Source of the DNA: Escherichia phage FP43
DNA length: 64,000 nt
Strand: one strand, 5' to 3'
Sequence record: MN648445
The translations under genes were made by a program, and so were the position numbers. Every line of letters starts with the position of its first letter. Positions within the stretch are counted from its first letter, which is position 1. Shown here piece by piece: positions 16,227 to 57,367 of the stretch. A model generated the notes under the pieces. The model searched no databases. It worked only from the letters and a program-made list of their open reading frames with translations, and had not been told where the DNA came from.

Positions 16227-16784
16227 ATGACTGAACAAAAACCTAAAAATAACTATGTGAATAATAAAGAGCTTCTCGCCGCTATAATCGAGTGGAAAAA
16301 GGAGCTCTTAAATAATAAAGACCCAAACAAAATTATTCGTCAGAATGATACCATCGGTTTAGCAATTATGCTTATCGCCGAAGGCCTGTCCAAACGTTTC
16401 AACTTTTCAGGATATACCCAGTCTTGGAAGCAGGAGATGATTGCAGATGGGATTGAAGCCTCTATTAAGGGACTTCATAATTTCGACGAAACTAAGTACA
16501 ATAACCCACATGCATACATAACTCGAGCTTGTTTTAATGCTTTTGTCCAACGTATCAAAAAAGAACGTAAGGAAGTTGCAAAGAAATATAGTTACTTCGT
16601 TCATAATGTCTACGACAGTCATGACGATGATATGGTAGCGTTGGTAGATGAAACGTTTATTCAAGACATCTACGATAAAATGACGCATTATGAAGAATCC
16701 GCTTATAAAGCTCCTGGGGCTGAAAAGAAGGAAGTTGTTAGCGATTCGCCTAGTTTGGATTTTTTATATGAGGATGACAATTGA
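16227..16784 (+). CDS. 55: late-transcription sigma factor gp55
   Basis: Near-identical to remembered T4 gp55 ([20 protein letters not shown]...[24 protein letters not shown]). Confidence 0.9.
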
Positions 16785-16983
16785 CATCTCTAACTACTTA
16801 GAAGAACCTTTTGACGAAGCAATCCCTTATTTGGTAAAACTGTTGGGTCGTGAATTTAAAATTAATTTTGACATCGACCCTTTGAACCCACATGACGTGT
16901 CATTTTCGATAAATGGGACTCCAGTTGAGTACGAGTTCTGTATTGAAGAGGATGGACGTTTTTATTTTAATTTAATGAGATAA
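16774..16983 (+). CDS. small hypothetical protein
   Basis: ATG 16774 overlapping end of gene 55. Confidence 0.4.
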
Positions 16984-16984
16984 T

Positions 16985-17308
16985 ATGACTACCGAGATTA
17001 TTGAAAATAAAGAAGCAGAAGATGCAGTAGCTAAAATGCTACAAGAAATCCAAAAGAAAAATGAAGCTGAAGCACGTAAAAAATCCGAAAAGATTCTTAA
17101 AAAGAATCGTTTTGAACTAAACCGTCTTTATGCACATGCTCAAGAAGCAGCAATTCAAAACAACTTCGAAGCTTACGAATATGCTATTAAGAAATCTCGG
17201 GATATTCTACGACAACCATATAATGACAAGTTAATTAAAATCCAGTGGATTACTACTCGTCAGGCTATTGAGGACATCATTAATGGCGCTAGTTCAAACA
17301 AAGTTTAA
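16985..17308 (+). CDS. hypothetical protein
   Basis: 107-aa ORF. Confidence 0.45.
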   Translation: MTTEIIENKEAEDAVAKMLQEIQKKNEAEARKKSEKILKKNRFELNRLYAHAQEAAIQNNFEAYEYAIKKSRDILRQPYNDKLIKIQWITTRQAIEDIINGASSNKV

Positions 17309-17489
17309 ACGTCTGAAGCTGAACGCAGGGTTCTCCCTTAAATTGGGAGGTCCTCTTTGTGTTAAAATTTCTGAAAAGGAATATCACGACGGTTCTATTA
17401 CAGAAATTTGTCCGCCTATTGTAAAGGCAGACCCAAAACAACTCGTGTGGGTCGATTCATTTCAAGTTAAGAAATGGTGGAAACGATGA
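17283..17489 (+). CDS. small hypothetical protein
   Basis: ATG 17283 inside ORF 17268..17489. Confidence 0.35.
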   Translation: MALVQTKFKRLKLNAGFSLKLGGPLCVKISEKEYHDGSITEICPPIVKADPKQLVWVDSFQVKKWWKR

Positions 17490-17528
17490 GAGAAATTGAT
17501 TTAGGCATTTTCTGAGAGGTGCTTATGC

Positions 17529-17702
17529 ATGACGAACATCCCGACTTCTGAAAATTTCGATAAAATCCGTAAAGGCAAAGCAGAAAGAATGAGACGTTTT
17601 AAAGAGTCTTATGATAAAGCTAAAGCCGAAGGAACTATTACATACAAGCCCATTCGATTTAAAAGTTCAAATGAGCCTCTGTACGGTGTACTATGTGGAT
17701 AG
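17529..17702 (+). CDS. small hypothetical protein (57 aa, below ORF-track cutoff)
   Basis: ATG 17529 after GAGAGG RBS; stop immediately before TTCG terminator. Confidence 0.3.
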   Translation: MTNIPTSENFDKIRKGKAERMRRFKESYDKAKAEGTITYKPIRFKSSNEPLYGVLCG

Positions 17703-27165: not shown

Positions 27166-27801
27166 ATGAAAACTACACCAATCACTATCGCTATTGACGC
27201 AATCGTAAAACAAGCTTCATCTCTTGCCACTATGGCTAAAGTAATTAGTCAAAACTCTGCCCGATATAATGCTATTCTTGAAACTCTTCGTCGCCCTGGA
27301 CTGAGTAATTATGAAAGCCGAGTAATTATTACAGGTGTTGGTAAGAACGCTAATATCGCAACTAAAGCTTCCGAGACTTTTGCTTCACTAGGTATTCCTA
27401 GCATGTATTTGAACACCGGGCATTATTCTCATGGCGACGCAGGATTTATTGCACCTAATGATGTATTAGTTCACATCAGTCGTTCTGGTAAGACTGAAGA
27501 AATGATAGGTGTTGCTAAACATCTTCGTATGATTCGTCCTCAGGTTAAACAGATTCTGTTACATTGTAACCCTGACATTCCGCAAGAATACGAAGCTCTT
27601 TTTGATTATACGTTCTGTACAGGCATCGCGGTAGAGGTTGATGAGAATTCTCTGGCTCCGACCATGTCCACTACATTGTTGTTAGCGCTTATCGATACGT
27701 TTGCTATCAACCTTTCGTCTGAACGTGGATTTACCTCTAATGACTTCCTTAAGTTCCACCCTGGTGGTGCACTAGGTGCCATGTTACGAGGCGAACAATG
27801 A
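27166..27801 (+). CDS. SIS-domain sugar-phosphate isomerase (arabinose-5-phosphate isomerase-like)
   Basis: 211 aa; ITGVGKNANIATK and SRSGKTEE SIS motifs; C-terminal FHPGGALGAML typical of KdsD/GutQ-type isomerases. Confidence 0.6.
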   Translation: MKTTPITIAIDAIVKQASSLATMAKVISQNSARYNAILETLRRPGLSNYESRVIITGVGKNANIATKASETFASLGIPSMYLNTGHYSHGDAGFIAPNDVLVHISRSGKTEEMIGVAKHLRMIRPQVKQILLHCNPDIPQEYEALFDYTFCTGIAVEVDENSLAPTMSTTLLLALIDTFAINLSSERGFTSNDFLKFHPGGALGAMLRGEQ

Positions 27802-27941
27802 AAGCAATAACAATAGGACTTTTACTATTGATGCTTGTCATGACTATCTACTGGAGCTTAACGGCTCCAGTAATGATTCCGACTCTTATAATCGGATGGA
27901 TTATGATTGGACTACAAGCAAAGTATGAATGCTTTAACTAG
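27798..27941 (+). CDS. small hydrophobic membrane peptide (47 aa), possibly Imm-like
   Basis: ATGA overlap with upstream gene; almost entirely hydrophobic. Confidence 0.3.
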   Translation: MKAITIGLLLLMLVMTIYWSLTAPVMIPTLIIGWIMIGLQAKYECFN

Positions 27942-27982
27942 AATAGTGTACGATACACCTACTTACCAATGAGGACCACAAC

Positions 27983-29668
27983 ATGAAAAAAGCTGTTATT
28001 CTTGGTGCTGGACTGGCAACTCGTTTGTATCCAATAACGCACCATATTCCTAAGGTGCTTGTTAACTATAAACAAGACACTATTCTGAGCAATTTGTATA
28101 CAATTTATTCTGACCTTGGCGCAGATGAAATTATTGTAGTAGTTCATTCAAAATTTGCTGAAACTGTTCGAGCTTATTGCGAGCAAGAAGGGTTCAATGT
28201 GACTATTCGTACAGTTGATGAAGCGTATGGTTCTGCTTATGCTCTTGCTAAATTATACAAAGATTTAGATGGCCATAACGTAATTGTTAACTGGTGTGAT
28301 ATTATTCCTGACTTTGGTTCATGGTCTTGGAATGTTAACGCAATCTATGTTAAGGGTGATGAATGTCGATATAATTTCGATGGTGAAAATATCACTAACG
28401 TAGGTTCAACAGGTGGTAATGTTGTAGGAATTTATCAGTTCAAAGACTGGGAATTCTACATGGGTTCTACTGATGAGGAAATTCACGAATACTGCAAAGG
28501 TCGTGATTTCGTAGAATTCCTTTACGGCAGTGCATTCAATAAATCAGAGCTTATGAATCTAATTGATTTAGGTGATATGCCTAAACTTGAAAAGGCTCAT
28601 GAAGTTCGTGAACTGAATCGTAGTTTTAATGCAGTTGAAATTGGCGAAGAAACTGTAACTAAATTCGCGTTAACCGAACAAGGTCGAGCTCTTCAAAAAG
28701 ATGAGATTTCATGGTATTTGAAAGTGAAATCAGATTCAGTTCCTCAGTTAGTTTCGGTAAATGAAAATAATTTTGAAATGGAACGTATTAAAGGTAAGCC
28801 GGCATTTGAATATATTAAATCCAAATCAAGTCTTGCTCGTCCACAAATTGTTGATGCAATTTTAGATGCACTGAAATTCAGCACGGACACTTATTTTGTA
28901 AGTCCTGAAACTGTTCGCCGTGATTTCACTAAAGAGTTCTATACGAAAGTTATTGATCGTTGTGAAAGCATTCAGCCATTGATTGATTCATTTGGTAAAA
29001 TCACACATGTGAACTACACTAAGATTGGACGTCTGAAGCCAATGTTGAAACAAGCTTTAGAACATCTTATTCGTTATCATAACCGTTCTCAGGGACAGTA
29101 CTCTGTTATTCATGGTGACCCGAACTTCAGTAATACTATGATTACCGATAACGGCGAAGTCAAGTTTATCGACCCTCGTGGATATTTTGGTGAAACCAAG
29201 ATTTACGGGCCAAAATTGTATGATGAAGCTAAAGTGCTTTATGCTGTTTCAGGTTATGATGAATTCAATGCTAATCCGACCTGGGGTCAGTTTACTATTG
29301 ATGAAACAACTTGTAATGTGACTATTAACATCAATCCATTAGTTTACAAATATGGAAAGATGAGTTCGTTTAACGAGTATCATCATTTGGCAGTAGCAAT
29401 TATCTGGATTGCATTAGGTGGTTATTTCAAGAATAATCCACTTAAAGCGGTTGCCGCATATTATAAAGGTATGGAACTTCTGACTAAGCAATTACGTAAC
29501 ATGGGCCGTGTACTTCAAGACGGCTCTATTAGTTATGACGTAGCAGAACCTGTAACGGCTACTCTGATTACAAAAAATCCTGGTAAATGGGTACTAACTG
29601 ATAAAGAAACTGGTGTTTCCTATCGTCCAATCGGCGGCGATATCACTCATCAATGGGAACGAATCTAA
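27983..29668 (+). CDS. bifunctional sugar-1-phosphate nucleotidyltransferase / sugar kinase (fusion)
   Basis: N-term MKKAVILGAGLATRLYPITHHIPKVLV (G-x-G-T-R-L nucleotidyltransferase signature); C-term HGDPNFSNTMI...IDPRG (APH/choline-kinase-like catalytic motifs). Confidence 0.6.
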   Translation: MKKAVILGAGLATRLYPITHHIPKVLVNYKQDTILSNLYTIYSDLGADEIIVVVHSKFAETVRAYCEQEGFNVTIRTVDEAYGSAYALAKLYKDLDGHNVIVNWCDIIPDFGSWSWNVNAIYVKGDECRYNFDGENITNVGSTGGNVVGIYQFKDWEFYMGSTDEEIHEYCKGRDFVEFLYGSAFNKSELMNLIDLGDMPKLEKAHEVRELNRSFNAVEIGEETVTKFALTEQGRALQKDEISWYLKVKSDSVPQLVSVNENNFEMERIKGKPAFEYIKSKSSLARPQIVDAILDALKFSTDTYFVSPETVRRDFTKEFYTKVIDRCESIQPLIDSFGKITHVNYTKIGRLKPMLKQALEHLIRYHNRSQGQYSVIHGDPNFSNTMITDNGEVKFIDPRGYFGETKIYGPKLYDEAKVLYAVSGYDEFNANPTWGQFTIDETTCNVTININPLVYKYGKMSSFNEYHHLAVAIIWIALGGYFKNNPLKAVAAYYKGMELLTKQLRNMGRVLQDGSISYDVAEPVTATLITKNPGKWVLTDKETGVSYRPIGGDITHQWERI

Positions 29669-30054
29669 TGCACCGTGTAGAAAACATGCTTAATCTTTGT
29701 TTTGATGTCGATGATTGTATAACAGAGTGGAATAACAATCGTGATTACGTGAACTTCAAACCAGACGTCGAAATGGTGTCTGCCATTAATGCCCTGTATG
29801 ATGCAGGGCATACCATAACGCTTTACACTGCCCGTGGTATGAAGTCGGTAGGTCCTGGTCGTATAGCAATTGACATTCTCCCAAGTCTGATTCAGAACTT
29901 GGAAAACATTGGTTTGAAGTACCATAATTTGCTAACACATAAACCAGTATATGATTGGATTATCGACGACAAAGCTATGCGTCCTGACGAATTCAAAGCT
30001 CTTATGAATAAAGGCGAATTCGAAACATTTAAATCATATAAACCAAATCTATAA
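29668..30054 (+). CDS. HAD-superfamily phosphatase
   Basis: FDVDDCIT motif I (DxDx[TV]); TAATG overlap with upstream kinase gene. Confidence 0.5.
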   Translation: MHRVENMLNLCFDVDDCITEWNNNRDYVNFKPDVEMVSAINALYDAGHTITLYTARGMKSVGPGRIAIDILPSLIQNLENIGLKYHNLLTHKPVYDWIIDDKAMRPDEFKALMNKGEFETFKSYKPNL

Positions 30055-30100
30055 TAATTTAAGTAAGACCTGCAAAAACCATCGCATCAATTAACGCGAG

Positions 30101-31273
30101 ATGCAAAAAAAAATGAATACTTTTAAAATCGGAACGAATTTTGATTTAGCTCTTCTTGATAAAATCGTAGAGCTCAATAAAACCTATCCTAATAGCTTGA
30201 TAAACGAAGTATATGGCTCTACAAGAGAAATGGCTTTTGTAGCAGCCAGACCTGATTTTAGGCTTCCTGACGTTGACAAAAAGATGTTAGAAGATTACGT
30301 TAAACGTTGTAACGAATTAGGTATTTGCTTTAACTATACACTCAACACGATAAATCCTGGTTCAAAAAGAGAACTAGTTGAGTGGAAGAAGAAAGCTATT
30401 CAGGATTATGTTCAGTATCTTTGGTCAATAGGCGTATGGCGTATTACTATCGCTAACCCTGTTGTTATGGAAATTGTTCGTGAAGTCAATAAAGATATTG
30501 AGATTGAAGTTTCAACAATTCTACATGTTGATGCTGTAACTCAAATCAAATACTTGCATGACCAATATAACATCAAAAAGGTCTGTTGCGGAATTCATAA
30601 GAACCGTTCAGTTTCTTTCCTGAAGCGTGCAGCAGAGTTTTGCAATAAGAACAATATAATATTTGAAGTTCTTGTAAATGAGTTCTGTTCTAATGCTGGT
30701 AAAGGGTATACAACACATTGTAGCTATCGTGACTCTTGCTATATTTTCCATAGTACTGATGTTACCGCTGATGATGCTAAATCCTTAAATGGATATCCTA
30801 TGCAGCACTGTATTAAAGCTCGTGATACAGACCCATTTAACTGGTTGAGAACTCGTTTTGTTCGTCCTCAAGATTTGAAACTTTATAATGATATTGGTAT
30901 CACTCAATTTAAAGTTTCAGGACGTACAGGTAGCACAGACTACATTTTGAAAGTTCTTGAAGCATACGCTTCTGAAAAGTTTGAAGGTAATTTGTTAGAA
31001 CTGTGGAAGCCTTTAGAGACTATTTTCACTCTTGAAAATGAGACTGAGTTTTCACATACAGTAAATATTGAAACCTCTTTGTTAGATGGCTTTTTAGAAA
31101 AAAGGTGGTTCAGACATCCAGATTTTGATTGTGCTAATGAAATCTGTGGGTCAACGTGTACATATTGTGAAAGGTATTATAAACGTCAATTATCTAAAAA
31201 CGGGTTAGCAGAAAACTCCATATCTATTATTGATATAACTAACTCTGATGACGCTTTGAGGTACCCGGAATGA
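30101..31273 (+). CDS. Cys-rich TIM-barrel-like protein (tentatively peptidase-U32-like; C-terminal C-x4-C-x3-C-x2-C cluster), possible Fe-S enzyme
   Basis: 390 aa; alternating beta/alpha pattern; CANEICGSTCTYC near C-terminus; alternative start at 30113. Confidence 0.5.
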   Translation: MQKKMNTFKIGTNFDLALLDKIVELNKTYPNSLINEVYGSTREMAFVAARPDFRLPDVDKKMLEDYVKRCNELGICFNYTLNTINPGSKRELVEWKKKAIQDYVQYLWSIGVWRITIANPVVMEIVREVNKDIEIEVSTILHVDAVTQIKYLHDQYNIKKVCCGIHKNRSVSFLKRAAEFCNKNNIIFEVLVNEFCSNAGKGYTTHCSYRDSCYIFHSTDVTADDAKSLNGYPMQHCIKARDTDPFNWLRTRFVRPQDLKLYNDIGITQFKVSGRTGSTDYILKVLEAYASEKFEGNLLELWKPLETIFTLENETEFSHTVNIETSLLDGFLEKRWFRHPDFDCANEICGSTCTYCERYYKRQLSKNGLAENSISIIDITNSDDALRYPE

Positions 31274-31509
31274 TTTCTAGAAAAAGTTTTAATTATAAAC
31301 TTAACGAAGAGATTTTGACTATGAAACTGAACACTAACGAACAAATTCTTAAAAAGGCCCTTATGGGCCTGTTTGAAACCAAAGCGGCTAAAGTGATTAA
31401 AGAACCTGTTCAATTGGAATACTACACTGATGCATTCCTTCATAGTGTTCTTGGAAGTATAGATTCTGAAGCTTTACGTTATATCAACATTGTCAAGAAA
31501 TTCAAATAA
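31270..31509 (+). CDS. small hypothetical protein
   Basis: 79-aa ORF, ATGA overlap. Confidence 0.35.
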   Translation: MISRKSFNYKLNEEILTMKLNTNEQILKKALMGLFETKAAKVIKEPVQLEYYTDAFLHSVLGSIDSEALRYINIVKKFK

Positions 31510-31568
31510 GCTTTACGAATTGAGTATATAATAAATTGTATTGAGGTAAACATGGAAAATATAACACA

Positions 31569-32267
31569 ATGAAATATATCAAAGCCGCAGATTTTCAAGC
31601 CGCATTTAAAGCAGTCAATCGTGAAATTTTAGAAAACCCCGAATTCGTAACTGATTCTCGTATTGGACGTTGTAATGAAATCGGGTCCATGACAGTAGTT
31701 GTTGACAATCCATCATCATTCAAAATGACCGACCCACGTATTAACCGCATCTCTTATGAATATGCCGAAGACTTCTGGAAGTTTATGATTTCTGGTGGTA
31801 CTGATGCAGAAGAAGCGTTTAAGGCATATCCTAATGTCGCTAAATTCATTTCTAAACCAAAATCAGATGCTTTGCCTGCGAACTTCAACACTTTCTACGG
31901 TCCTCGCATTGTGGCCCAATTACCAGCTCTTCTAAAAGAACTTAAAGAGAAACCTAACTCTCGAAGAGTTGTGTTCCAAATTCTAGAAAGTTCTGATCAG
32001 GCTTTGCTTGATTCAGACGAAACACTTGAATATCCATGTACTGACTCAGTGACTTATTATATTCGTGATGGTAAGCTTTATACCCACTGCCATATGCGTT
32101 CTCAGAACTGTGCTGTTGTTATGCAGTTGGATTTTTATCTCCAAGGAAAATTACTTCATTATATCGCTAACGAATGTGGTGTAGAAGTTGGTGATTATAC
32201 TCATACCATGGTAAGTGCCCATGTGTTTGAACGTGATTTTGATTATGTTAAAGGATTCCTTGACTAA
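31569..32267 (+). CDS. 42: dCMP hydroxymethylase-like (thymidylate-synthase fold), gene 42
   Basis: 232 aa; PNSRRVVFQI and CTDSVTYYIRDGKLY...MRSQN align with remembered T4 gp42 active-site region; syntenic. Confidence 0.75.
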   Translation: MKYIKAADFQAAFKAVNREILENPEFVTDSRIGRCNEIGSMTVVVDNPSSFKMTDPRINRISYEYAEDFWKFMISGGTDAEEAFKAYPNVAKFISKPKSDALPANFNTFYGPRIVAQLPALLKELKEKPNSRRVVFQILESSDQALLDSDETLEYPCTDSVTYYIRDGKLYTHCHMRSQNCAVVMQLDFYLQGKLLHYIANECGVEVGDYTHTMVSAHVFERDFDYVKGFLD

Positions 32268-33166
32268 TGGCTATTTTCCGCGTACCAATCTTAAGTATGC
32301 GGTCTTATGAAACTGGACAGTATGCTATCCTTAAGGATGGCAACTTCCAACTTCATTTGCACCGTGCTAATCCAGGTGATGTGATTACATATCCACGTAA
32401 TGCATCTGATATTAAAGAATGTGAACGTCTTTTCCCGGAATTTAAGTTTGTTCCATTATGGTATAAAGATAACGCGTATAACACTCGTAAATATTTCTGG
32501 TCTGAAAATGAATTTGTGGTTGATTCATTAATTGCTTATTATGATTGTGATTTTCTAATAACAGATATCACTGGATATGACGGCGCTTTTGATGTAGAAT
32601 TCAATTTCAATATCACGGCAGACCCTAATAAACCACGTTTTTATATTGACGAATTCTTAAAAACCGATATGTTGTCAGTTAATCGTTCACTTCAAACTAC
32701 TGTGTTGAATGAACGTCAAAAAGAAGTGCTGGTTAACGCCGGTGCAGATGTTAATAAGATTATCGTAACGCAGAAAGTTATACGTCCTTCCATCATGCAG
32801 CGTCTTGTAGGTGATTTGGCTCCTATTCATCTAGATGGTATTTTTCATCCATTTCGAATTAGTGACCCATGTTATCGTTTTGAACAAGTGGTTGAATGTG
32901 CAATTCAATTAGGACAACCGCTTTATATAACCGATCCAAATAATAGCTTTGACAGAAATAAGTATCCTGAAGAAGCGCTGATTCGAATTTTTAAACCAAC
33001 TAAAACTGAGTACTATCAAATTCTTAAAGGACGTCCGAAAATTCAATATTTCGAAAATCCTGAAGAAGTATTCCATCCAGGTCTTGGTGAGTTCATCTAC
33101 TTTAATGCTTTAATTTCTTCACCGTATAATATACCTAAATACGAAGATGTCGTAATCGAGGAATAA
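32267..33166 (+). CDS. hypothetical protein occupying the T4 beta-glucosyltransferase position
   Basis: 299 aa; TAATG overlap with gene 42; no motif recognised. Confidence 0.5.
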   Translation: MAIFRVPILSMRSYETGQYAILKDGNFQLHLHRANPGDVITYPRNASDIKECERLFPEFKFVPLWYKDNAYNTRKYFWSENEFVVDSLIAYYDCDFLITDITGYDGAFDVEFNFNITADPNKPRFYIDEFLKTDMLSVNRSLQTTVLNERQKEVLVNAGADVNKIIVTQKVIRPSIMQRLVGDLAPIHLDGIFHPFRISDPCYRFEQVVECAIQLGQPLYITDPNNSFDRNKYPEEALIRIFKPTKTEYYQILKGRPKIQYFENPEEVFHPGLGEFIYFNALISSPYNIPKYEDVVIEE

Positions 33167-33167
33167 A

Positions 33168-33716
33168 ATGGCTAAAATTATTTTAGTAGACGGCCCGGAT
33201 AATGCCGGTAAAACAACTTTCATTAATGACATAATGGAAATTAGTGAAAGATATGTGAAGATTGATTTCCCTAAACGAACAGTTGATGGACGTTTCGATG
33301 TTAAGTCTCGAAATGAAGTTGGCTGTTTCGAAACGATGTTGAATTATTTAGACCCTACTAAGATTTATCTGTTAGACCGTGGATATATTAGTAACTGGGT
33401 TTATGGACGTATTCGACAAGATGCGGACTCGGTTCTTGACGTTTATGAACAGGACTATGTTCGTCTTTGCCAAAACCATGATGTGTTCACAATTATTTTA
33501 ACACGTAACGAAATGACTGAAAGTTTTGAAGACGACCTTATTACTTTGTCTTCATTCGGTTTTAATACAGTCATTTCACATTTTGAAGAGTTTGCAATTC
33601 ATAACAAAATCCAAACGTATCAATTACTTAATCATGATGGTGCTAACAAAGTTATAGGATTTAATGCAAGCGAACGTAATGGTTTGATTACAGAAATCAT
33701 CAAATGGGCTCGTTAA
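33168..33716 (+). CDS. P-loop nucleotide/nucleoside kinase (thymidylate-kinase-like)
   Basis: Walker A GPDNAGKTT; LLDRGYISNWVYG resembles the TMPK DR[YH] motif. Confidence 0.5.
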   Translation: MAKIILVDGPDNAGKTTFINDIMEISERYVKIDFPKRTVDGRFDVKSRNEVGCFETMLNYLDPTKIYLLDRGYISNWVYGRIRQDADSVLDVYEQDYVRLCQNHDVFTIILTRNEMTESFEDDLITLSSFGFNTVISHFEEFAIHNKIQTYQLLNHDGANKVIGFNASERNGLITEIIKWAR

Positions 33717-51887: not shown

Positions 51888-53705
51888 ATGATTAAAAATG
51901 AAATTAAGGTATTGTCAGATGTAGAACATATTAAGAAACGTAGTGGTATGTATATTGGTTCTTCGGCCAAAGAAGCCCACGAGCGTTTTTTGTTTGGTAA
52001 ATATCAACAAGTTGAATATGTTCCTGGTCTGGTTAAATTAATCGATGAGATTATTGACAACTCGGTTGATGAAGCTATTCGTACATCATTTAAGTTTGCA
52101 AATAAAATTGATGTGCAAATTAAAAATAATCAAGTTTCGGTGGAAGATAACGGACGTGGTATTCCTCAAGGTTTAGTTACCGACCAAACAGGTGAACAAA
52201 TTCCTGGGCCTGTAGCAGCCTGGACTATTCCAAAGGCCGGTGGTAACTTTGGTGATGACTCTGAACGCAAGACTGGTGGTATGAACGGCGTCGGGAGTAG
52301 TTTAACTAATATCTTCTCTACGTTGTTTACAGGCATCACGTCAGATGGCGAAAATGAAATCACTGTTAACTGTTCAAACGGAATGGAAAACAAATCATGG
52401 TCTTCTAAGAAATCTAAAGGTAAAGGCACTAAAGTAATCTTCACTCCTGATTTCACTTCATTTGAAGAGCATAATTTATCTCAAATTTATTTAGATATTA
52501 CTTTAGACCGACTTCAAACATTGGCAGTCGTTTATCCTGATATCACGTTCACATTTAATGGTAAAAAGGTTGATGGTAATTTTAAACGATTTGCTAAACA
52601 ATTTGGTGAAGATAATATCATTCAAGAAAATGATAAAGTCTCTATAGCATTCACAACATCACCAGATGGCTTCCGTCATTTAACTTATGTGAATAACATC
52701 CATACTAAAAATGGTGGACATCATGTTGAATGTGTAATGGACGATATCTGCGAACATCTTTTGCCGGGTATTAAAAAGAAATATAAGGGTATTGAAGTCA
52801 CTAAAGCTCGTGTTAAAGAATGTCTCACAATGTTGATGTTTATTAGAGACATGAGCAACATGCGTTTTGATTCTCAGACTAAAGAACGTTTAACGTCAAC
52901 GTATGGTGATATTCGTAATCATATCCAATTAGATGCTAAGAAAATTGCTCAGGCACTTCTTAAAAATGAAGCCTTGATTATGCCTATTGTTGAAGCAGCA
53001 TTAGCTCGTAAATTGGCGGCAGAAAAGGCTGCAGAAACTAAAGCAGCTAAAAAGGCAACTAAAGCTAAGGTTCATAAGCATATTAAAGCTAACCAATGTG
53101 GTAAAGATGCAGATACGACATTGTTTTTAACAGAAGGTGATTCGGCAATTGGATATCTCATTGATGTTCGTGACCGTGAACTACACGGCGGATTCCCGTT
53201 ACGTGGTAAGGTGATGAATAGCTGGGGTATGTCATATGCTGATATGATGAAGAACAAAGAGCTCTTTGATATCTGTGCTATCACAGGTCTTATTCTTGGT
53301 GAAAAGGCAGAGAATACGAACTATCGTAATATTGCAATTATGACCGATGCCGATCATGACGGCCTTGGAAGTATTTATCCTGCTTTGCTTGCTTTCTTTA
53401 GTAATTGGCCTGAATTGTTTGAACAAGGACGTATTCGCTTTGTTAAAACACCTGTAATTATTGCACAAATTGGCAAAACTCAAAAATGGTTTTATACTGT
53501 AGCTGAGTATGAAGAAGTTAAAGATACACTGCCTAAGCATAGTATTCGATACATCAAGGGATTGGGCTCCCTTGAAAAGTCAGAGTATCGTGAAATGATT
53601 CAGAACCCTGTGTACGACGTAGTTAAACTTCCTGAAAATTGGAAAGAACTCTTTGAAATGCTGATGGGTGATGATTCAGAACTTCGTAAAGAATGGATGT
53701 CCTAA
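51888..53705 (+). CDS. 39: DNA topoisomerase II large subunit gp39 (GyrB-like), continuous 605-aa form (T4 39+60 equivalent)
   Basis: MIKNEIKVLSDVEHIKKRSGMYIGS...; ATPase and TOPRIM regions in one frame. Confidence 0.95.
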   Translation: MIKNEIKVLSDVEHIKKRSGMYIGSSAKEAHERFLFGKYQQVEYVPGLVKLIDEIIDNSVDEAIRTSFKFANKIDVQIKNNQVSVEDNGRGIPQGLVTDQTGEQIPGPVAAWTIPKAGGNFGDDSERKTGGMNGVGSSLTNIFSTLFTGITSDGENEITVNCSNGMENKSWSSKKSKGKGTKVIFTPDFTSFEEHNLSQIYLDITLDRLQTLAVVYPDITFTFNGKKVDGNFKRFAKQFGEDNIIQENDKVSIAFTTSPDGFRHLTYVNNIHTKNGGHHVECVMDDICEHLLPGIKKKYKGIEVTKARVKECLTMLMFIRDMSNMRFDSQTKERLTSTYGDIRNHIQLDAKKIAQALLKNEALIMPIVEAALARKLAAEKAAETKAAKKATKAKVHKHIKANQCGKDADTTLFLTEGDSAIGYLIDVRDRELHGGFPLRGKVMNSWGMSYADMMKNKELFDICAITGLILGEKAENTNYRNIAIMTDADHDGLGSIYPALLAFFSNWPELFEQGRIRFVKTPVIIAQIGKTQKWFYTVAEYEEVKDTLPKHSIRYIKGLGSLEKSEYREMIQNPVYDVVKLPENWKELFEMLMGDDSELRKEWMS

Positions 53706-53727
53706 GCTCCTTCGGGAGCTTCATTTT
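53704..53727 (+). terminator. intrinsic terminator (TTCG tetraloop) after gene 39
   Basis: AAGCTCC TTCG GGAGCTT then CATTTT. Confidence 0.55.
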
Positions 53728-53747
53728 AATTTTAATAAGGCTTAATT

Positions 53748-54848
53748 ATGAAAGTTATGTTTATCCCATCTCGCGCAGTCCCATTTAACCCAGAACGTGT
53801 ACAAGGTGGTCTTGAAGCAGTACATTTAAATGTATTGAAATATCTTGTGTCCATCGGTGCTGATATTGATTATATCGGCTTTGATAATGACACGTTTGGT
53901 GACTGGAAGGTTAATCATCATCCTGTTGGTCATCTGACTAAATTCAGTCTAGGTATGAGTTATACTATGGCTCGTAAGATTGTTGAACTAGCCGGCATCC
54001 ATGAATACGATTTTGTTGTTACTATGGAACCGACCAAACTAACCGTTCAGGCAATTAAAGACGCAGGTCTCTCTAAAGTTCATAAGAATTTTATGGCAAC
54101 ACCATTTGAACCGGTATCTCGTGGCATTGTTCAAATTTGGGACCAGACTATTCAAATTCATAAGAACGGTGGTAAGAGTTATGCTCCTACTAAAGCCTTC
54201 CGTGAATTTGAACGCAAATATTGTTATATGACTTCAGGTCTGACTGACAAAATTGATTATGATTATTGGCGAGCAAATCCGTTGTTTGAAGCCGAAGATT
54301 ATCCGGTTATTTGTTTGAATGAGAAACCTGAAGTTCTTCCGGCGACTGATCTGATTATTAGTGCACAACGTTATGACACTAAAATGCGTCGTACTGATGT
54401 TGCTCTTGAAGCGATTAAAGCACTAGGCGAAAATGGTGCAGGATACTGTCCTAGTAAATGGGCACCACCAGCTAAATATCCTGTTATTATTGATGCTCCA
54501 CACAGTGAAATCATGGAACGTCTTAAAACAGCTAAAGCACTTATCAATACGTGTCCTGACACGGGTACGGTAGAGAATAGTTCTATTGAAGCCATCTCTA
54601 AAGGTGTCCCTGTGATTCAGTTAGTTTTTAAGGATTATCCGCACGCGACATTCGAATATGACCCAGATACTGTGCGTGTAGAAATTGATTCCTCTACTCC
54701 TAAGAAAGAAGTAGTTGCGCTTTACACAAAAGCTGTATTAGAATTCACTGACACATACGAAGCTCGAGTTAAACGTGCTGAAGCAGTATGGAAGAAGTAT
54801 AACCGAGATGCAGTTGTTGCGATGTGGGATAAAATCTTCACAGCGTAA
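53748..54848 (+). CDS. putative GT-B fold glycosyltransferase (candidate DNA hmC glycosyltransferase)
   Basis: 366 aa; N-terminal MKVMFIP...GGLE and C-terminal TGTVENSSIEAISKGVPVI resemble GT-B donor-binding region; lies between 39 and rIIA. Confidence 0.5.
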   Translation: MKVMFIPSRAVPFNPERVQGGLEAVHLNVLKYLVSIGADIDYIGFDNDTFGDWKVNHHPVGHLTKFSLGMSYTMARKIVELAGIHEYDFVVTMEPTKLTVQAIKDAGLSKVHKNFMATPFEPVSRGIVQIWDQTIQIHKNGGKSYAPTKAFREFERKYCYMTSGLTDKIDYDYWRANPLFEAEDYPVICLNEKPEVLPATDLIISAQRYDTKMRRTDVALEAIKALGENGAGYCPSKWAPPAKYPVIIDAPHSEIMERLKTAKALINTCPDTGTVENSSIEAISKGVPVIQLVFKDYPHATFEYDPDTVRVEIDSSTPKKEVVALYTKAVLEFTDTYEARVKRAEAVWKKYNRDAVVAMWDKIFTA

Positions 54849-54940
54849 ATCCTGAATCGCCTGAGGCACTATTACACATAAGATGATAGATTATATGGTC
54901 TTTAGTAATAGTGCCCTAGGAATCTACTGAAGAGAATATT

Positions 54941-55141
54941 ATGAGAACATATAACGTGGACTTGGAACTTTTTGATAAAGCGGTGCTCCGGGAATTCCGG
55001 CTTATCCAAAGATTTTTTGATATCGAGTCAGCAGAGTCCTTTAAAGAACGCTTTAAAGAAATTCGATATAAAATACAAACCGATACAGCTACTAAAGAAG
55101 AACTTCTTGAAGTAGCAGAAATTTTTAAACGTAACTTGTGA
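54941..55141 (+). CDS. small hypothetical protein (rIIA.1 position)
   Basis: 66-aa ORF upstream of rIIA. Confidence 0.4.
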   Translation: MRTYNVDLELFDKAVLREFRLIQRFFDIESAESFKERFKEIRYKIQTDTATKEELLEVAEIFKRNL

Positions 55142-55153
55142 TGAGAGAAAAAT

Positions 55154-57367
55154 ATGATTATTGAAACGGCTAAAGAAACGATTATTGGTTCAGGCGGTAA
55201 GAGCACAGCATTTACTATTCAAGGCAATAGCAAAGTTTATAAGATTTTGTCTAATGACCTTTATACAAACAAAGAATTGGCTTGTGTACGTGAATTAATC
55301 ACAAACTGTATCGATGGACAAATTCTTAATGGTTGCACTGATAAGTTTATTGTTCAGGCTCCAGGTCGTTTAGACCCACGTTTTGTAGTTCGAGACTTTG
55401 GTCCTGGTATGAGTGATTTCACCATTCGAGGTAATGACGAAGAGCCAGGAATCTATAACTCATATTTTGCTTCAACTAAAACATCGAGTAACGATTTCAT
55501 TGGTGGATTCGGACTCGGCTCTAAAGCTCCACTAGCATATACCGACACATTTAACCTTACGTCTTATCACAACGGCGAAGTTCGTGGTTATGTAATTTAT
55601 CAAGATGACACAGGTCCACAGATTAAGCCGACCTTTGTAGATAAGATGGGTCCTGATGACCGTACGGGTGTAGAAGTAGTTGTACCGGTTAACCCGGAAG
55701 ATTTTGAAAAGTTTGCATCCGAAATTGCATATGTTATGCGTCCTCTAGGTGACATTGCAGAAGTTCGTGGTGTTAAAGATATCAAATACTTTCCTGAATT
55801 TGATGATGTATATTTGGCCAAGGAAGCTCCATGGGGTGAACGCGGTAATATCATGGCTGTTTATGGCGGTATTGTATATCCAATCGGAAGTGTTATTAAA
55901 GAACAAACGTGGATGATGACGCGATGCACTACAGCTTATATTAAATTCCCTATGGGTGAACTAGATGTAGCTCCGTCTCGTGAAGCATTGTCATTTGATA
56001 AACGTACAGTAGCAAATATCCATAAACGCGTTGCAGAAATCGATGCTAAATTGTTCGCTGAAGATTCTAAGAAATGGATTGATTGTAAATACCCACGTCA
56101 TGTGTTCCGTGAAATTGATTCTCTTGGCTATACCGCTCGTAAATACATGGAAAAGGCCGGGTCTAATATTGAATCACTGAAATACTCTAAAGAACAACTA
56201 ACTTATTCTGAGTTGTACAAACGTTTTAAAATGGGGCCTGAGTGGTGTAATCTTGGTGTCGTATACGATATCGTTGAATCCCCTCGTCTTCGTCGTATTC
56301 GTGAAAGCGGCAGCTCAACGGCAACCATTTCAATTAACAGTCTGATTGGCATTAACATTAAAAATGTTGAAATTGTTATTGACGACGTTAAGGGACGCGT
56401 TCCATTAATGCGAGCTCTTAATTCAATTGAAATGTCTAAAGACGAGGTTAAATTAACCGGTAAAGTTCCACGCGGTTTTGGTAAAAGCGTACTATTCGTT
56501 GACCCTACAGACGAAGATGCAATGAAACTTCTGGAACGCCTTAAAGTTATCTTTGATGGCGACAACATTAACATGTACAAGACTTCAGAGCTTTTACAAA
56601 TCGTTAAGCCATGGATTGAAGTCAGGAAACGGACTAATGAGCCTCGTCCTAAATCGCCAAGTGCTCATCGATTCTTTAAGAATGAAAACGATGTTTGGGT
56701 ATCAGAAGACCTCTTTATTCCGGCAAGTGAAGCAGATGAAATCCAAGGTTATGCTATAGTTCGTAATCGTTCTAATGCTGAATGTCTTGACGCAGATAAA
56801 GGTTGGTTGAACTATGACTCCAATTTCTTAACCCGTATTGCTGATTTGTCAGGTATTAAAGAGTTCACTGTAGTTCGTCCACAGATTGCTAAGAAAGTTC
56901 GTAAACTTGGTGAAGTAGAATGCTTGTTCGAAAAATCAATTAATGACTATATTACGCTAATCGATAAAGTGGATTATGATGAGTATGTATCACCAAGTCG
57001 TAGAGCACAGCCTTATTTGAATCATATTACTCGTAATGAAGAGCTTAACTTCCTTAGTAAGTATTTTAGCTCTAAGAACAAAGAAATCAGTAAAGACTTT
57101 GCAAAACTCTCAACAGTAAATAATCGTTGGGGATGGAATCGATTCGCAGGTGCTACTAATACAGACCTGAATAAGAAGTTAGAACTGTGTGCTAAAATTT
57201 TCGATAAGCTTAAAGATAATGCTTACGATAATGATGATAAAATGGTTATTGAATTCGAAACCAATTATCATATTGTGTCAGACTACATGGGACGACGTGG
57301 TACTCTTTCTAAAGAACAAGTCGCTCAAATCGTTAAATTCATGAAGGCTGTGGAAGCAGCCAAATAA
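55154..57367 (+). CDS. rIIA: rIIA membrane-associated protein (GHKL-ATPase-like N-terminus)
   Basis: 737 aa; VRELITNCIDG, RLDPRFVVRDFGPGMSDF, NDFIGGFGLGSKAP match remembered T4 rIIA. Confidence 0.9.
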   Translation: MIIETAKETIIGSGGKSTAFTIQGNSKVYKILSNDLYTNKELACVRELITNCIDGQILNGCTDKFIVQAPGRLDPRFVVRDFGPGMSDFTIRGNDEEPGIYNSYFASTKTSSNDFIGGFGLGSKAPLAYTDTFNLTSYHNGEVRGYVIYQDDTGPQIKPTFVDKMGPDDRTGVEVVVPVNPEDFEKFASEIAYVMRPLGDIAEVRGVKDIKYFPEFDDVYLAKEAPWGERGNIMAVYGGIVYPIGSVIKEQTWMMTRCTTAYIKFPMGELDVAPSREALSFDKRTVANIHKRVAEIDAKLFAEDSKKWIDCKYPRHVFREIDSLGYTARKYMEKAGSNIESLKYSKEQLTYSELYKRFKMGPEWCNLGVVYDIVESPRLRRIRESGSSTATISINSLIGINIKNVEIVIDDVKGRVPLMRALNSIEMSKDEVKLTGKVPRGFGKSVLFVDPTDEDAMKLLERLKVIFDGDNINMYKTSELLQIVKPWIEVRKRTNEPRPKSPSAHRFFKNENDVWVSEDLFIPASEADEIQGYAIVRNRSNAECLDADKGWLNYDSNFLTRIADLSGIKEFTVVRPQIAKKVRKLGEVECLFEKSINDYITLIDKVDYDEYVSPSRRAQPYLNHITRNEELNFLSKYFSSKNKEISKDFAKLSTVNNRWGWNRFAGATNTDLNKKLELCAKIFDKLKDNAYDNDDKMVIEFETNYHIVSDYMGRRGTLSKEQVAQIVKFMKAVEAAK

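Follow-up and report, generated by a model that had tools for sequence, protein, structure and literature searches.

A phage glycosyltransferase gene of the RB69 ORF003c/HY126 family between gene 39 and rIIA, and its probable role as the second DNA arabinosyltransferase

Several T-even phages attach sugars to the cytosines of their DNA. The T4 enzymes AGT and BGT, with which the protein described here shares a GT-B fold, use of a UDP-sugar donor, decoration of modified cytosines after replication and an anti-restriction role, transfer glucose from UDP-glucose directly onto the base, hydroxymethylcytosine (hmC). Our protein has no detectable sequence similarity to them and is encoded at another genomic position; its donor and base would be UDP-arabinofuranose and 5-hydroxycytosine, and its acceptor is probably a sugar already present on the base. 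The closest analogy in logic is the β-glucosyl-HMC-α-glucosyltransferase of T2 and T6, another phage enzyme that acts second and extends the first sugar on modified cytosine to a disaccharide, although sugar, linkage and base are all different. The product in T2 and T6 is gentiobiosyl-hmC (PMC13390438).

The cytosines of RB69 are β-D-Araf-(1→3)-α-D-Araf-5-hydroxy-dC according to LC-MS and NMR, the sugar being ether-linked to 5-hydroxycytosine without a methylene bridge (Lee et al. 2026, PMC13326640). Phages Bas46 and Bas47 are also doubly arabinosylated (PMC12923530), and Mosigvirus NP contains mono- and di-arabinosyl-dC in a ratio of 1:4 (PMC13390438). Thomas et al. (2018, PMC6024577) used custom HMMs and HHpred to single out ORF003c as the likely RB69 arabinosyltransferase. 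More recently, RB69 ORF003c was labelled 'β-arabinosyltransferase 2' and RB69 gp46:47 was modelled as 'arabinosyltransferase 1' (PMC13326640). Two members of the same family, β-arabinosyltransferases 2 and 3 of Acinetobacter phages (DLP3 gp76/gp77, DLP1 ADLP1_075/074), belong to the same pathway and are 41-43% identical to our protein over the full length; they differ in being tandem paralogues within the modification cluster, right after its kinase gene, and in being associated with tri- rather than di-arabinosylation.

The DNA analysed here (the window) is a stretch of 64,000 nucleotides from Escherichia phage FP43 (MN648445). A megablast search with positions 53000-56000 gave 147 phage records with near-complete coverage, the best of which was Mosigvirus vB_EcoM_SA79RD with 99.2% DNA identity, and by these matches the window belongs to an RB69-like T-even phage of the genus Mosigvirus. 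The gene of interest (the target) is an open reading frame of 366 codons with an ATG start at 53748..54848 on the + strand, preceded at a distance of 7 nt by a Shine-Dalgarno-like AAGG (53737..53740, +) read from the sequence. An earlier, sequence-only reading of this DNA had proposed a DNA glycosyltransferase here on the basis of a few motifs, all of which we located: MKVMFIP from residue 1, GGLE at residues 20-23 and TGTVENSSIEAISKGVPVI at residues 272-290. The frame is not a chance one, to judge from its full-length conservation in 209 phage records and from the fact that a 98%-identical protein has been crystallised and solved.

Upstream of the target, gp39 (51888..53705, +) is a single protein of 605 aa that covers T4 gp39 and gp60. 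Over its first 474 residues it shares 79% identity with T4 gp39, and its C-terminus is 90% identical to the product of T4 gene 60, hence we read it as a fusion of the two; 51888-53705 is free of the mobA/60.1 insertion and has no trace of the bypass arrangement of T4 gene 60. Downstream lie a homologue of rIIA.1 (54941..55141; 71% identity to T4) and then rIIA (55154..57367). The target had been thought to sit where T4 has gene 60 and rIIA.1. It does lie next to the 39/60 fusion, but rIIA.1 has not been displaced, and because its homologue is present, the location is between 39/60 and rIIA.1. This is the arrangement of Mosigvirus, and it has been described for the same gene (PMC13390438).

Sequence comparisons left little doubt about the family. 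The target is 99.5% identical in amino acid sequence (tblastn) to RB69ORF003c (gp3, NP_861693) and matches PHROG 8302 ('unknown function') over residues 1-366 of 366 with E=9.4e-223. A PDB sequence search returned a single pair of entries, 9iqz and 9ir0, at full length and with E=2.8e-249. These are the apo and UDP-containing structures of the 'phage HY126 glycosyltransferase', released on 2025-07-16 and 98% identical to the target. With the same length of 366 aa and the same place between the topoisomerase gene and rIIA.1, the target is the same gene as RB69 ORF003c and the HY126 gene, with no difference of substance, and the window represents a further isolate of Mosigvirus. A comparison with the RB69-type arabinosyltransferase, suggested in the sequence-only reading, thus ended in identity. 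The title of 9ir0 ('with UDP') indicates by proxy that the target, too, binds a UDP donor.

The fold was approached from both sequence and structure. Searches of Pfam (E≤10) and NCBIfam gave no family for the target, the HMMs for CAZy GT4/Pfam Glycos_transf_1 and Glyco_trans_4 gave no significant match, and a profile search of the PDB with the alignment of the target family found no sequence besides 9iqz, so that the target is not placeable among glycosyltransferases by sequence methods alone. An AlphaFold2 (AF2) model built from a 6-sequence alignment had a mean pLDDT of 61, with about 80 in the C-terminal domain and poor values in the N-terminal one; it was adequate for retrieving the solved structure and unsuited to residue-level conclusions. 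A Foldseek search with this model gave 162 PDB matches at E≤0.001, headed by 9iqz/9ir0, and the best 50 of the 162 were GT-B enzymes plus one GT-B-fold epimerase. The neighbours following the phage enzyme were of the GT-B/GT4 type and included PimA, WaaG, BshA, SenB and the tll1591 glucosyltransferase; retaining GT4-type enzymes (PimA 2gej, WaaG, BshA, sucrose-phosphate synthase) matched with E values of 5e-8 to 1e-6 and a Foldseek probability of 1.0. The target has two features in common with them: a Gly-Gly loop (G20-G21) in its N-terminal part and, within the nucleotide-binding domain, a C-terminal acidic motif. It differs in an identity of only 10-14%, in matching no Pfam glycosyltransferase model at E≤10, in an acceptor that would be carried by DNA, and in the acidic motif itself, as the E-x7-E of GT4 enzymes is absent from its C-terminal domain and the invariant acidic pair E276 and E281 forms E-x4-E. 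Our own model being only moderately confident, we base the fold, GT-B with two Rossmann-like β/α/β domains, mainly on the solved structure of the 98%-identical protein. The proposed GT-B assignment was thus borne out by the structure search and the match to 9iqz/9ir0, though not by the Pfam and NCBIfam libraries, and the proposal of a DNA-modifying glycosyltransferase is likewise supported.

We then looked for the T4 transferases. In tblastn searches against the window, T4 α-gt and β-gt gave no match better than E = 1.9, and the target had nothing better than E=0.075 in the first 32 kb of T4, which holds b-gt; at the sequence level it is not homologous to AGT or BGT by this measure. In the interval between genes 55 and 47 we found homologues of T4 a-gt.5, a-gt.4, a-gt.3 and a-gt.2 (16768-17699), and did not find a-gt, mobB and 47.1. 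The sequence-only reading was therefore right that α-gt and β-gt are missing from the window and that the 55-47 interval has small frames only, and its view that the target stands in for the T4 enzymes is supported.

The place of T4 β-gt, between the homologue of gene 42 and uvsX, is occupied by a frame of 299 aa (32267..33166, +) that adjoins the gene 42 homologue and corresponds to RB69 ORF046c and 047c, here intact. Although noted before, it had been set aside as unrelated, which was wrong. It has no match in Pfam, NCBIfam or the PDB sequences, and its AF2 model (44-sequence alignment; mean pLDDT 94.4, pTM 0.89) confidently predicts a GT-B transferase, which we propose to be the first, base-proximal (α) arabinosyltransferase, in line with the published modelling of RB69 gp46:47 as 'arabinosyltransferase 1' (PMC13326640). 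BLASTP detected no similarity between the target and this protein (E=3.5), so the two are not recent paralogues.

This second transferase gene is part of a cluster for the synthesis of the donor and the modified base (27166-33716), in which every ORF is 89-100% identical to RB69 ORF045c-055c and in which the split RB69 ORFs 046c/047c and 052c/053c are each a single intact ORF. The genes, all on the + strand, begin with a SIS-domain protein (27166..27801; Pfam SIS; 96% identity to ORF055c), a putative arabinose-5-phosphate isomerase that would catalyse the first step of donor synthesis (role per PMC13326640). It is followed by a predicted bifunctional sugar kinase/UDP-sugar pyrophosphorylase (27983..29668; RB69 ORF053c and 052c, 99.7-100% identity) with a Pfam NTP_transferase match and weaker matches to kinase families; it is AfhE-like, the AfhE activities being those cited in PMC13326640. 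Next come a small HAD-type, AfhF-like putative sugar phosphatase (29653..30054; RB69 ORF051c, 98% identity; NCBIfam TIGR01689 capsule biosynthesis phosphatase, E=1.9e-13; PMC13326640), a peptidase-U32-family ORF discussed below, and a thymidylate synthase (TS) homologue in the gene 42 slot (31569..32267; Pfam Thymidylat_synt; RB69 ORF048c, 98% identity). Behind the 299-aa transferase gene, the last cluster gene before uvsX encodes a nucleotide-kinase-like protein (33168..33716; weak dTMP-kinase match; RB69 ORF045c, 99% identity); at this position of its cluster, Acinetobacter phage DLP1 has a gene annotated as thymidylate kinase. All genes of the arabinosyl-5-hydroxycytosine cluster are thus present in the window, and sequence, synteny and gene co-occurrence together place the target in the RB69 ORF003c/HY126 family. 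At identities of at least 95%, the target type occurs in 155 phage records and the 299-aa type in 153. The earlier suggestion that the module at 27166-31273 supplies the nucleotide sugar for the target is almost certainly correct.

The sequence-only reading had gone further and named hmC as the acceptor, with transfer to hmC DNA as the assay. A target acting on hmC DNA would be a functional analogue of T4 α-gt/β-gt, as might be expected from a GT-B protein in a T-even-like genome that lacks both genes, and the 2018 report did give the modification as arabinosyl-hmC (PMC6024577). That assignment has since been called erroneous (PMC13390438), and the LC-MS and NMR data on RB69 place the arabinose on 5-hydroxycytosine through an ether link (PMC13326640). 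The gene 42 homologue of the window points the same way. It is 25% identical to T4 gp42, as against 60-90% for other core and replication genes, and its closest solved structures are 9iqu, 9iqc and 9ir2 (E~5e-156), whose codes neighbour 9iqz/9ir0. RB69 gp48, a TS homologue 98% identical to it, carries a flavin and makes 5-hydroxy-dCMP, and its expression in E. coli yields 5-hydroxy-dC (PMC13326640). The low identity to gp42 fits the published reassignment of this protein as a dCMP 5-hydroxylase. We consider it highly improbable that the target is an hmC-DNA transferase, and because the RB69-type base is 5-hydroxycytosine and the gene 42 homologue is so divergent, a test on hmC DNA would aim at the wrong acceptor.

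To see how the two transferases are distributed, we used a tblastn-type homologue search among 50,697 phage records. The target type was found in 211 of them. Mosigvirus of Escherichia and Shigella carry one copy with at least 95% identity, and 55 Acinetobacter phages have it in two places each with about 42% identity. A single record with an organism name beginning 'Tegunavirus' has a homologue of less than 60% identity, the sole case outside Mosigvirus and the Acinetobacter phages. The 299-aa type is present in 348 records from Escherichia, Klebsiella, Serratia, Yersinia, Edwardsiella, Proteus, Providencia, Shewanella (Thanatos) and Acinetobacter phages, and adjoins the TS homologue among the annotated records listed. 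Shewanella phage Thanatos has the 299-aa type and no target-type gene. Thanatos has been described as mono-arabinosylated, the Mosigvirus-type RB69 as di-arabinosylated and DLP3 as tri-arabinosylated (PMC13326640), and copy numbers of 0, 1 and 2 for the target type match the mono-, di- and tri-arabinosylation reported for these phages (PMC13326640) and for Bas46/47 (PMC12923530) and NP (PMC13390438).

The DLP1 cluster runs from the isomerase through pyrophosphorylase/kinase, HAD protein, TS homologue, 299-type transferase and kinase to two tandem target-type genes. Positions 27166-33716 of the window show the same order, the difference being that in DLP1 the target-type genes belong to the cluster. 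Identities between the target and the two Acinetobacter paralogues are 42.6% and 41%, and the paralogues are 58% identical to each other; the equal distance of the target from both suggests that the duplication took place within the Acinetobacter-phage lineage. When combined in vitro, purified DLP3 gp76 and gp77 extend the sugar on RB69 DNA by a third arabinose with UDP-Araf as the donor. Singly, the DLP3 transferases did not act on 5hoC DNA, and both paralogues were required for tri-arabinosylation (PMC13326640). Since the third sugar depends on both, a scheme of one enzyme for one sugar may be too simple, and the enzymes may cooperate.

Taken together, these data point to a four-step pathway. 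The TS homologue (31569-32267) would make 5-hydroxy-dCMP, which goes into DNA instead of C, and the module at 27166-30054 would convert ribulose-5-P via arabinose-5-P and Araf-1-P to UDP-arabinofuranose. The 299-aa GT-B enzyme (32267-33166) would then place the first (α) arabinose on the 5-hydroxyl of cytosine, and the target would add the second arabinofuranose (β-1,3) onto this sugar. This would give the di-arabinosylated cytosine that dominates in the virion DNA of RB69-type phages and shields it from nucleases. We regard it as very probable that the target is a soluble GT-B (GT4-like) UDP-sugar transferase that acts on phage DNA and adds the second arabinose in this pathway, and it is most likely the chain-extending arabinosyltransferase, as the published authors propose. 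Established here or in print are the fold, the identity with ORF003c, the binding of UDP by the 98%-identical protein, the RB69 DNA chemistry and the in vitro extending activity of the Acinetobacter homologues. Transfer from UDP-Araf to arabinosylated 5-hydroxycytosine is known directly for the DLP3 homologues in combination (PMC13326640) and is proposed for the target. That the target makes the second transfer and not the first is our inference, as is its stereochemical mechanism: the β-linkage could form by retention, as in the GT4-like neighbours, or by inversion. Deletion of an arabinosyltransferase named 'Aat' in Bas46 is reported to have sensitised the phage to a defence system (PMC13216743, citing other work); this fits a dispensable extender, if Aat is the target gene, as we infer.

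The order of the two transferases could be reversed, with the target acting directly on the modified cytosine and the 299-aa enzyme as the extender. ORF003c was, after all, proposed as the arabinosyltransferase when it was the only RB69 candidate (PMC6024577), both proteins are GT-B so that the fold is silent on order, and the accessible literature offers no direct acceptor assay of the target or of its RB69/HY126 orthologue. This order appears unlikely to us, as the 299-aa type is universal and syntenic with the hydroxylase across arabinosylating lineages, including Thanatos with its mono-arabinosylated DNA (PMC13326640) and no target-type gene, whereas the copy number of the target type follows the number of extra sugars, and as the target-type homologues of DLP3 extend DNA that is already arabinosylated in vitro (PMC13326640). 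Phyletic pattern, copy number and the activity of gp76/gp77 make the 299-aa enzyme first and the target second the most economical order. The same findings bear on the idea that the substrate of the target is not DNA but, for instance, LPS, a lipid of the host envelope or a protein, and that the gene lies in an early-gene region by chance. Its closest structural neighbours outside phages, PimA, WaaG and BshA, do act on lipids, LPS and small molecules, and in Mosigvirus the gene is 20 kb away from the modification cluster. We nevertheless give this idea very little credence, because the gene is distributed over the 50,697 phage records in the same way as the arabinosylating Straboviridae (plus the one 'Tegunavirus' record), both Acinetobacter-phage copies are inside the arabinosylation cluster, and their products modify DNA in vitro (PMC13326640).

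To a more tentative proposal we give somewhat less than an even chance. The target type may be a portable chain-extension unit whose copy number (0, 1 or 2) sets the length of the arabinose chain, and the Mosigvirus copy may have moved, or been separately acquired, into the plastic 39-rIIA region, between a hairpin and an inverted repeat (see below). The copy-number correlation is seen in our data and largely implied by published work, and the independent mobility is our extrapolation. If true, host defences could drive the gain or loss of the target-type gene while the core pathway stays in place.

The target gene was already known from the 2018 prediction, the 2025 crystal structure and the pathway papers of 2025-2026, and hence adds no new knowledge. 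The value of the present case lies in its correct recognition from sequence alone, and in the corrections made here to the hmC assumption, the overlooked second transferase and the probable role in chain extension. By arabinosylating their DNA, the members of a large group of coliphages of therapeutic relevance evade restriction enzymes, DNA glycosylases and some CRISPR systems, and the number of arabinoses seems to alter which defences work. Assigning genes to sugars therefore matters for phage engineering and for the prediction of host range.

The target gene is flanked on both sides by sequences that could form RNA structures. A hairpin with a perfect 7-bp stem, a TTCG loop and a T-rich tail (AAGCTCC-TTCG-GGAGCTT, 53704..53721, +) overlaps the stop codon of gp39 and ends 27 nt before the target ATG. 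It looks like a terminator or an RNA-stabilising hairpin, and its counterpart in vB_EcoM_SA79RD is annotated as a rho-independent terminator. On the other side, between the target and rIIA.1, there is an imperfect inverted repeat of 16 nt (88% complementary, 29-nt loop; 54860-54920, +). A scan for sigma-70 promoters around the target gave no more sites than shuffled sequence. We also considered a recent foreign insertion and rejected it, as the target (GC 0.40 against 0.37 for the window; GC3 0.28) is not distinguishable from its neighbours.

Members of the U32 family include the oxygen-independent hydroxylases RlhA, which makes 5-hydroxycytidine in rRNA, TrhP and UbiU/V. The peptidase-U32-family ORF inside the cluster (30101-31273, +; RB69 ORF050c) matches Pfam PF01136 with E=7e-11 and, weakly, a UbiU-like NCBIfam model, and has been labelled just 'sugar or heterocycle reductase' (PMC13326640). 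It is absent from the cluster of Acinetobacter phage DLP1. It is strikingly conserved: homologues occur in 221 phage records, with at least 80% identity throughout, and among these are phages of Shewanella, Yersinia, Serratia and Proteus, in which the 299-aa transferase beside it is only 40-65% identical. By analogy with RlhA, TrhP and UbiU/V, the U32 protein might be a candidate for an oxygen-independent route to 5-hydroxy-dCMP alongside the flavin- and O2-dependent enzyme.
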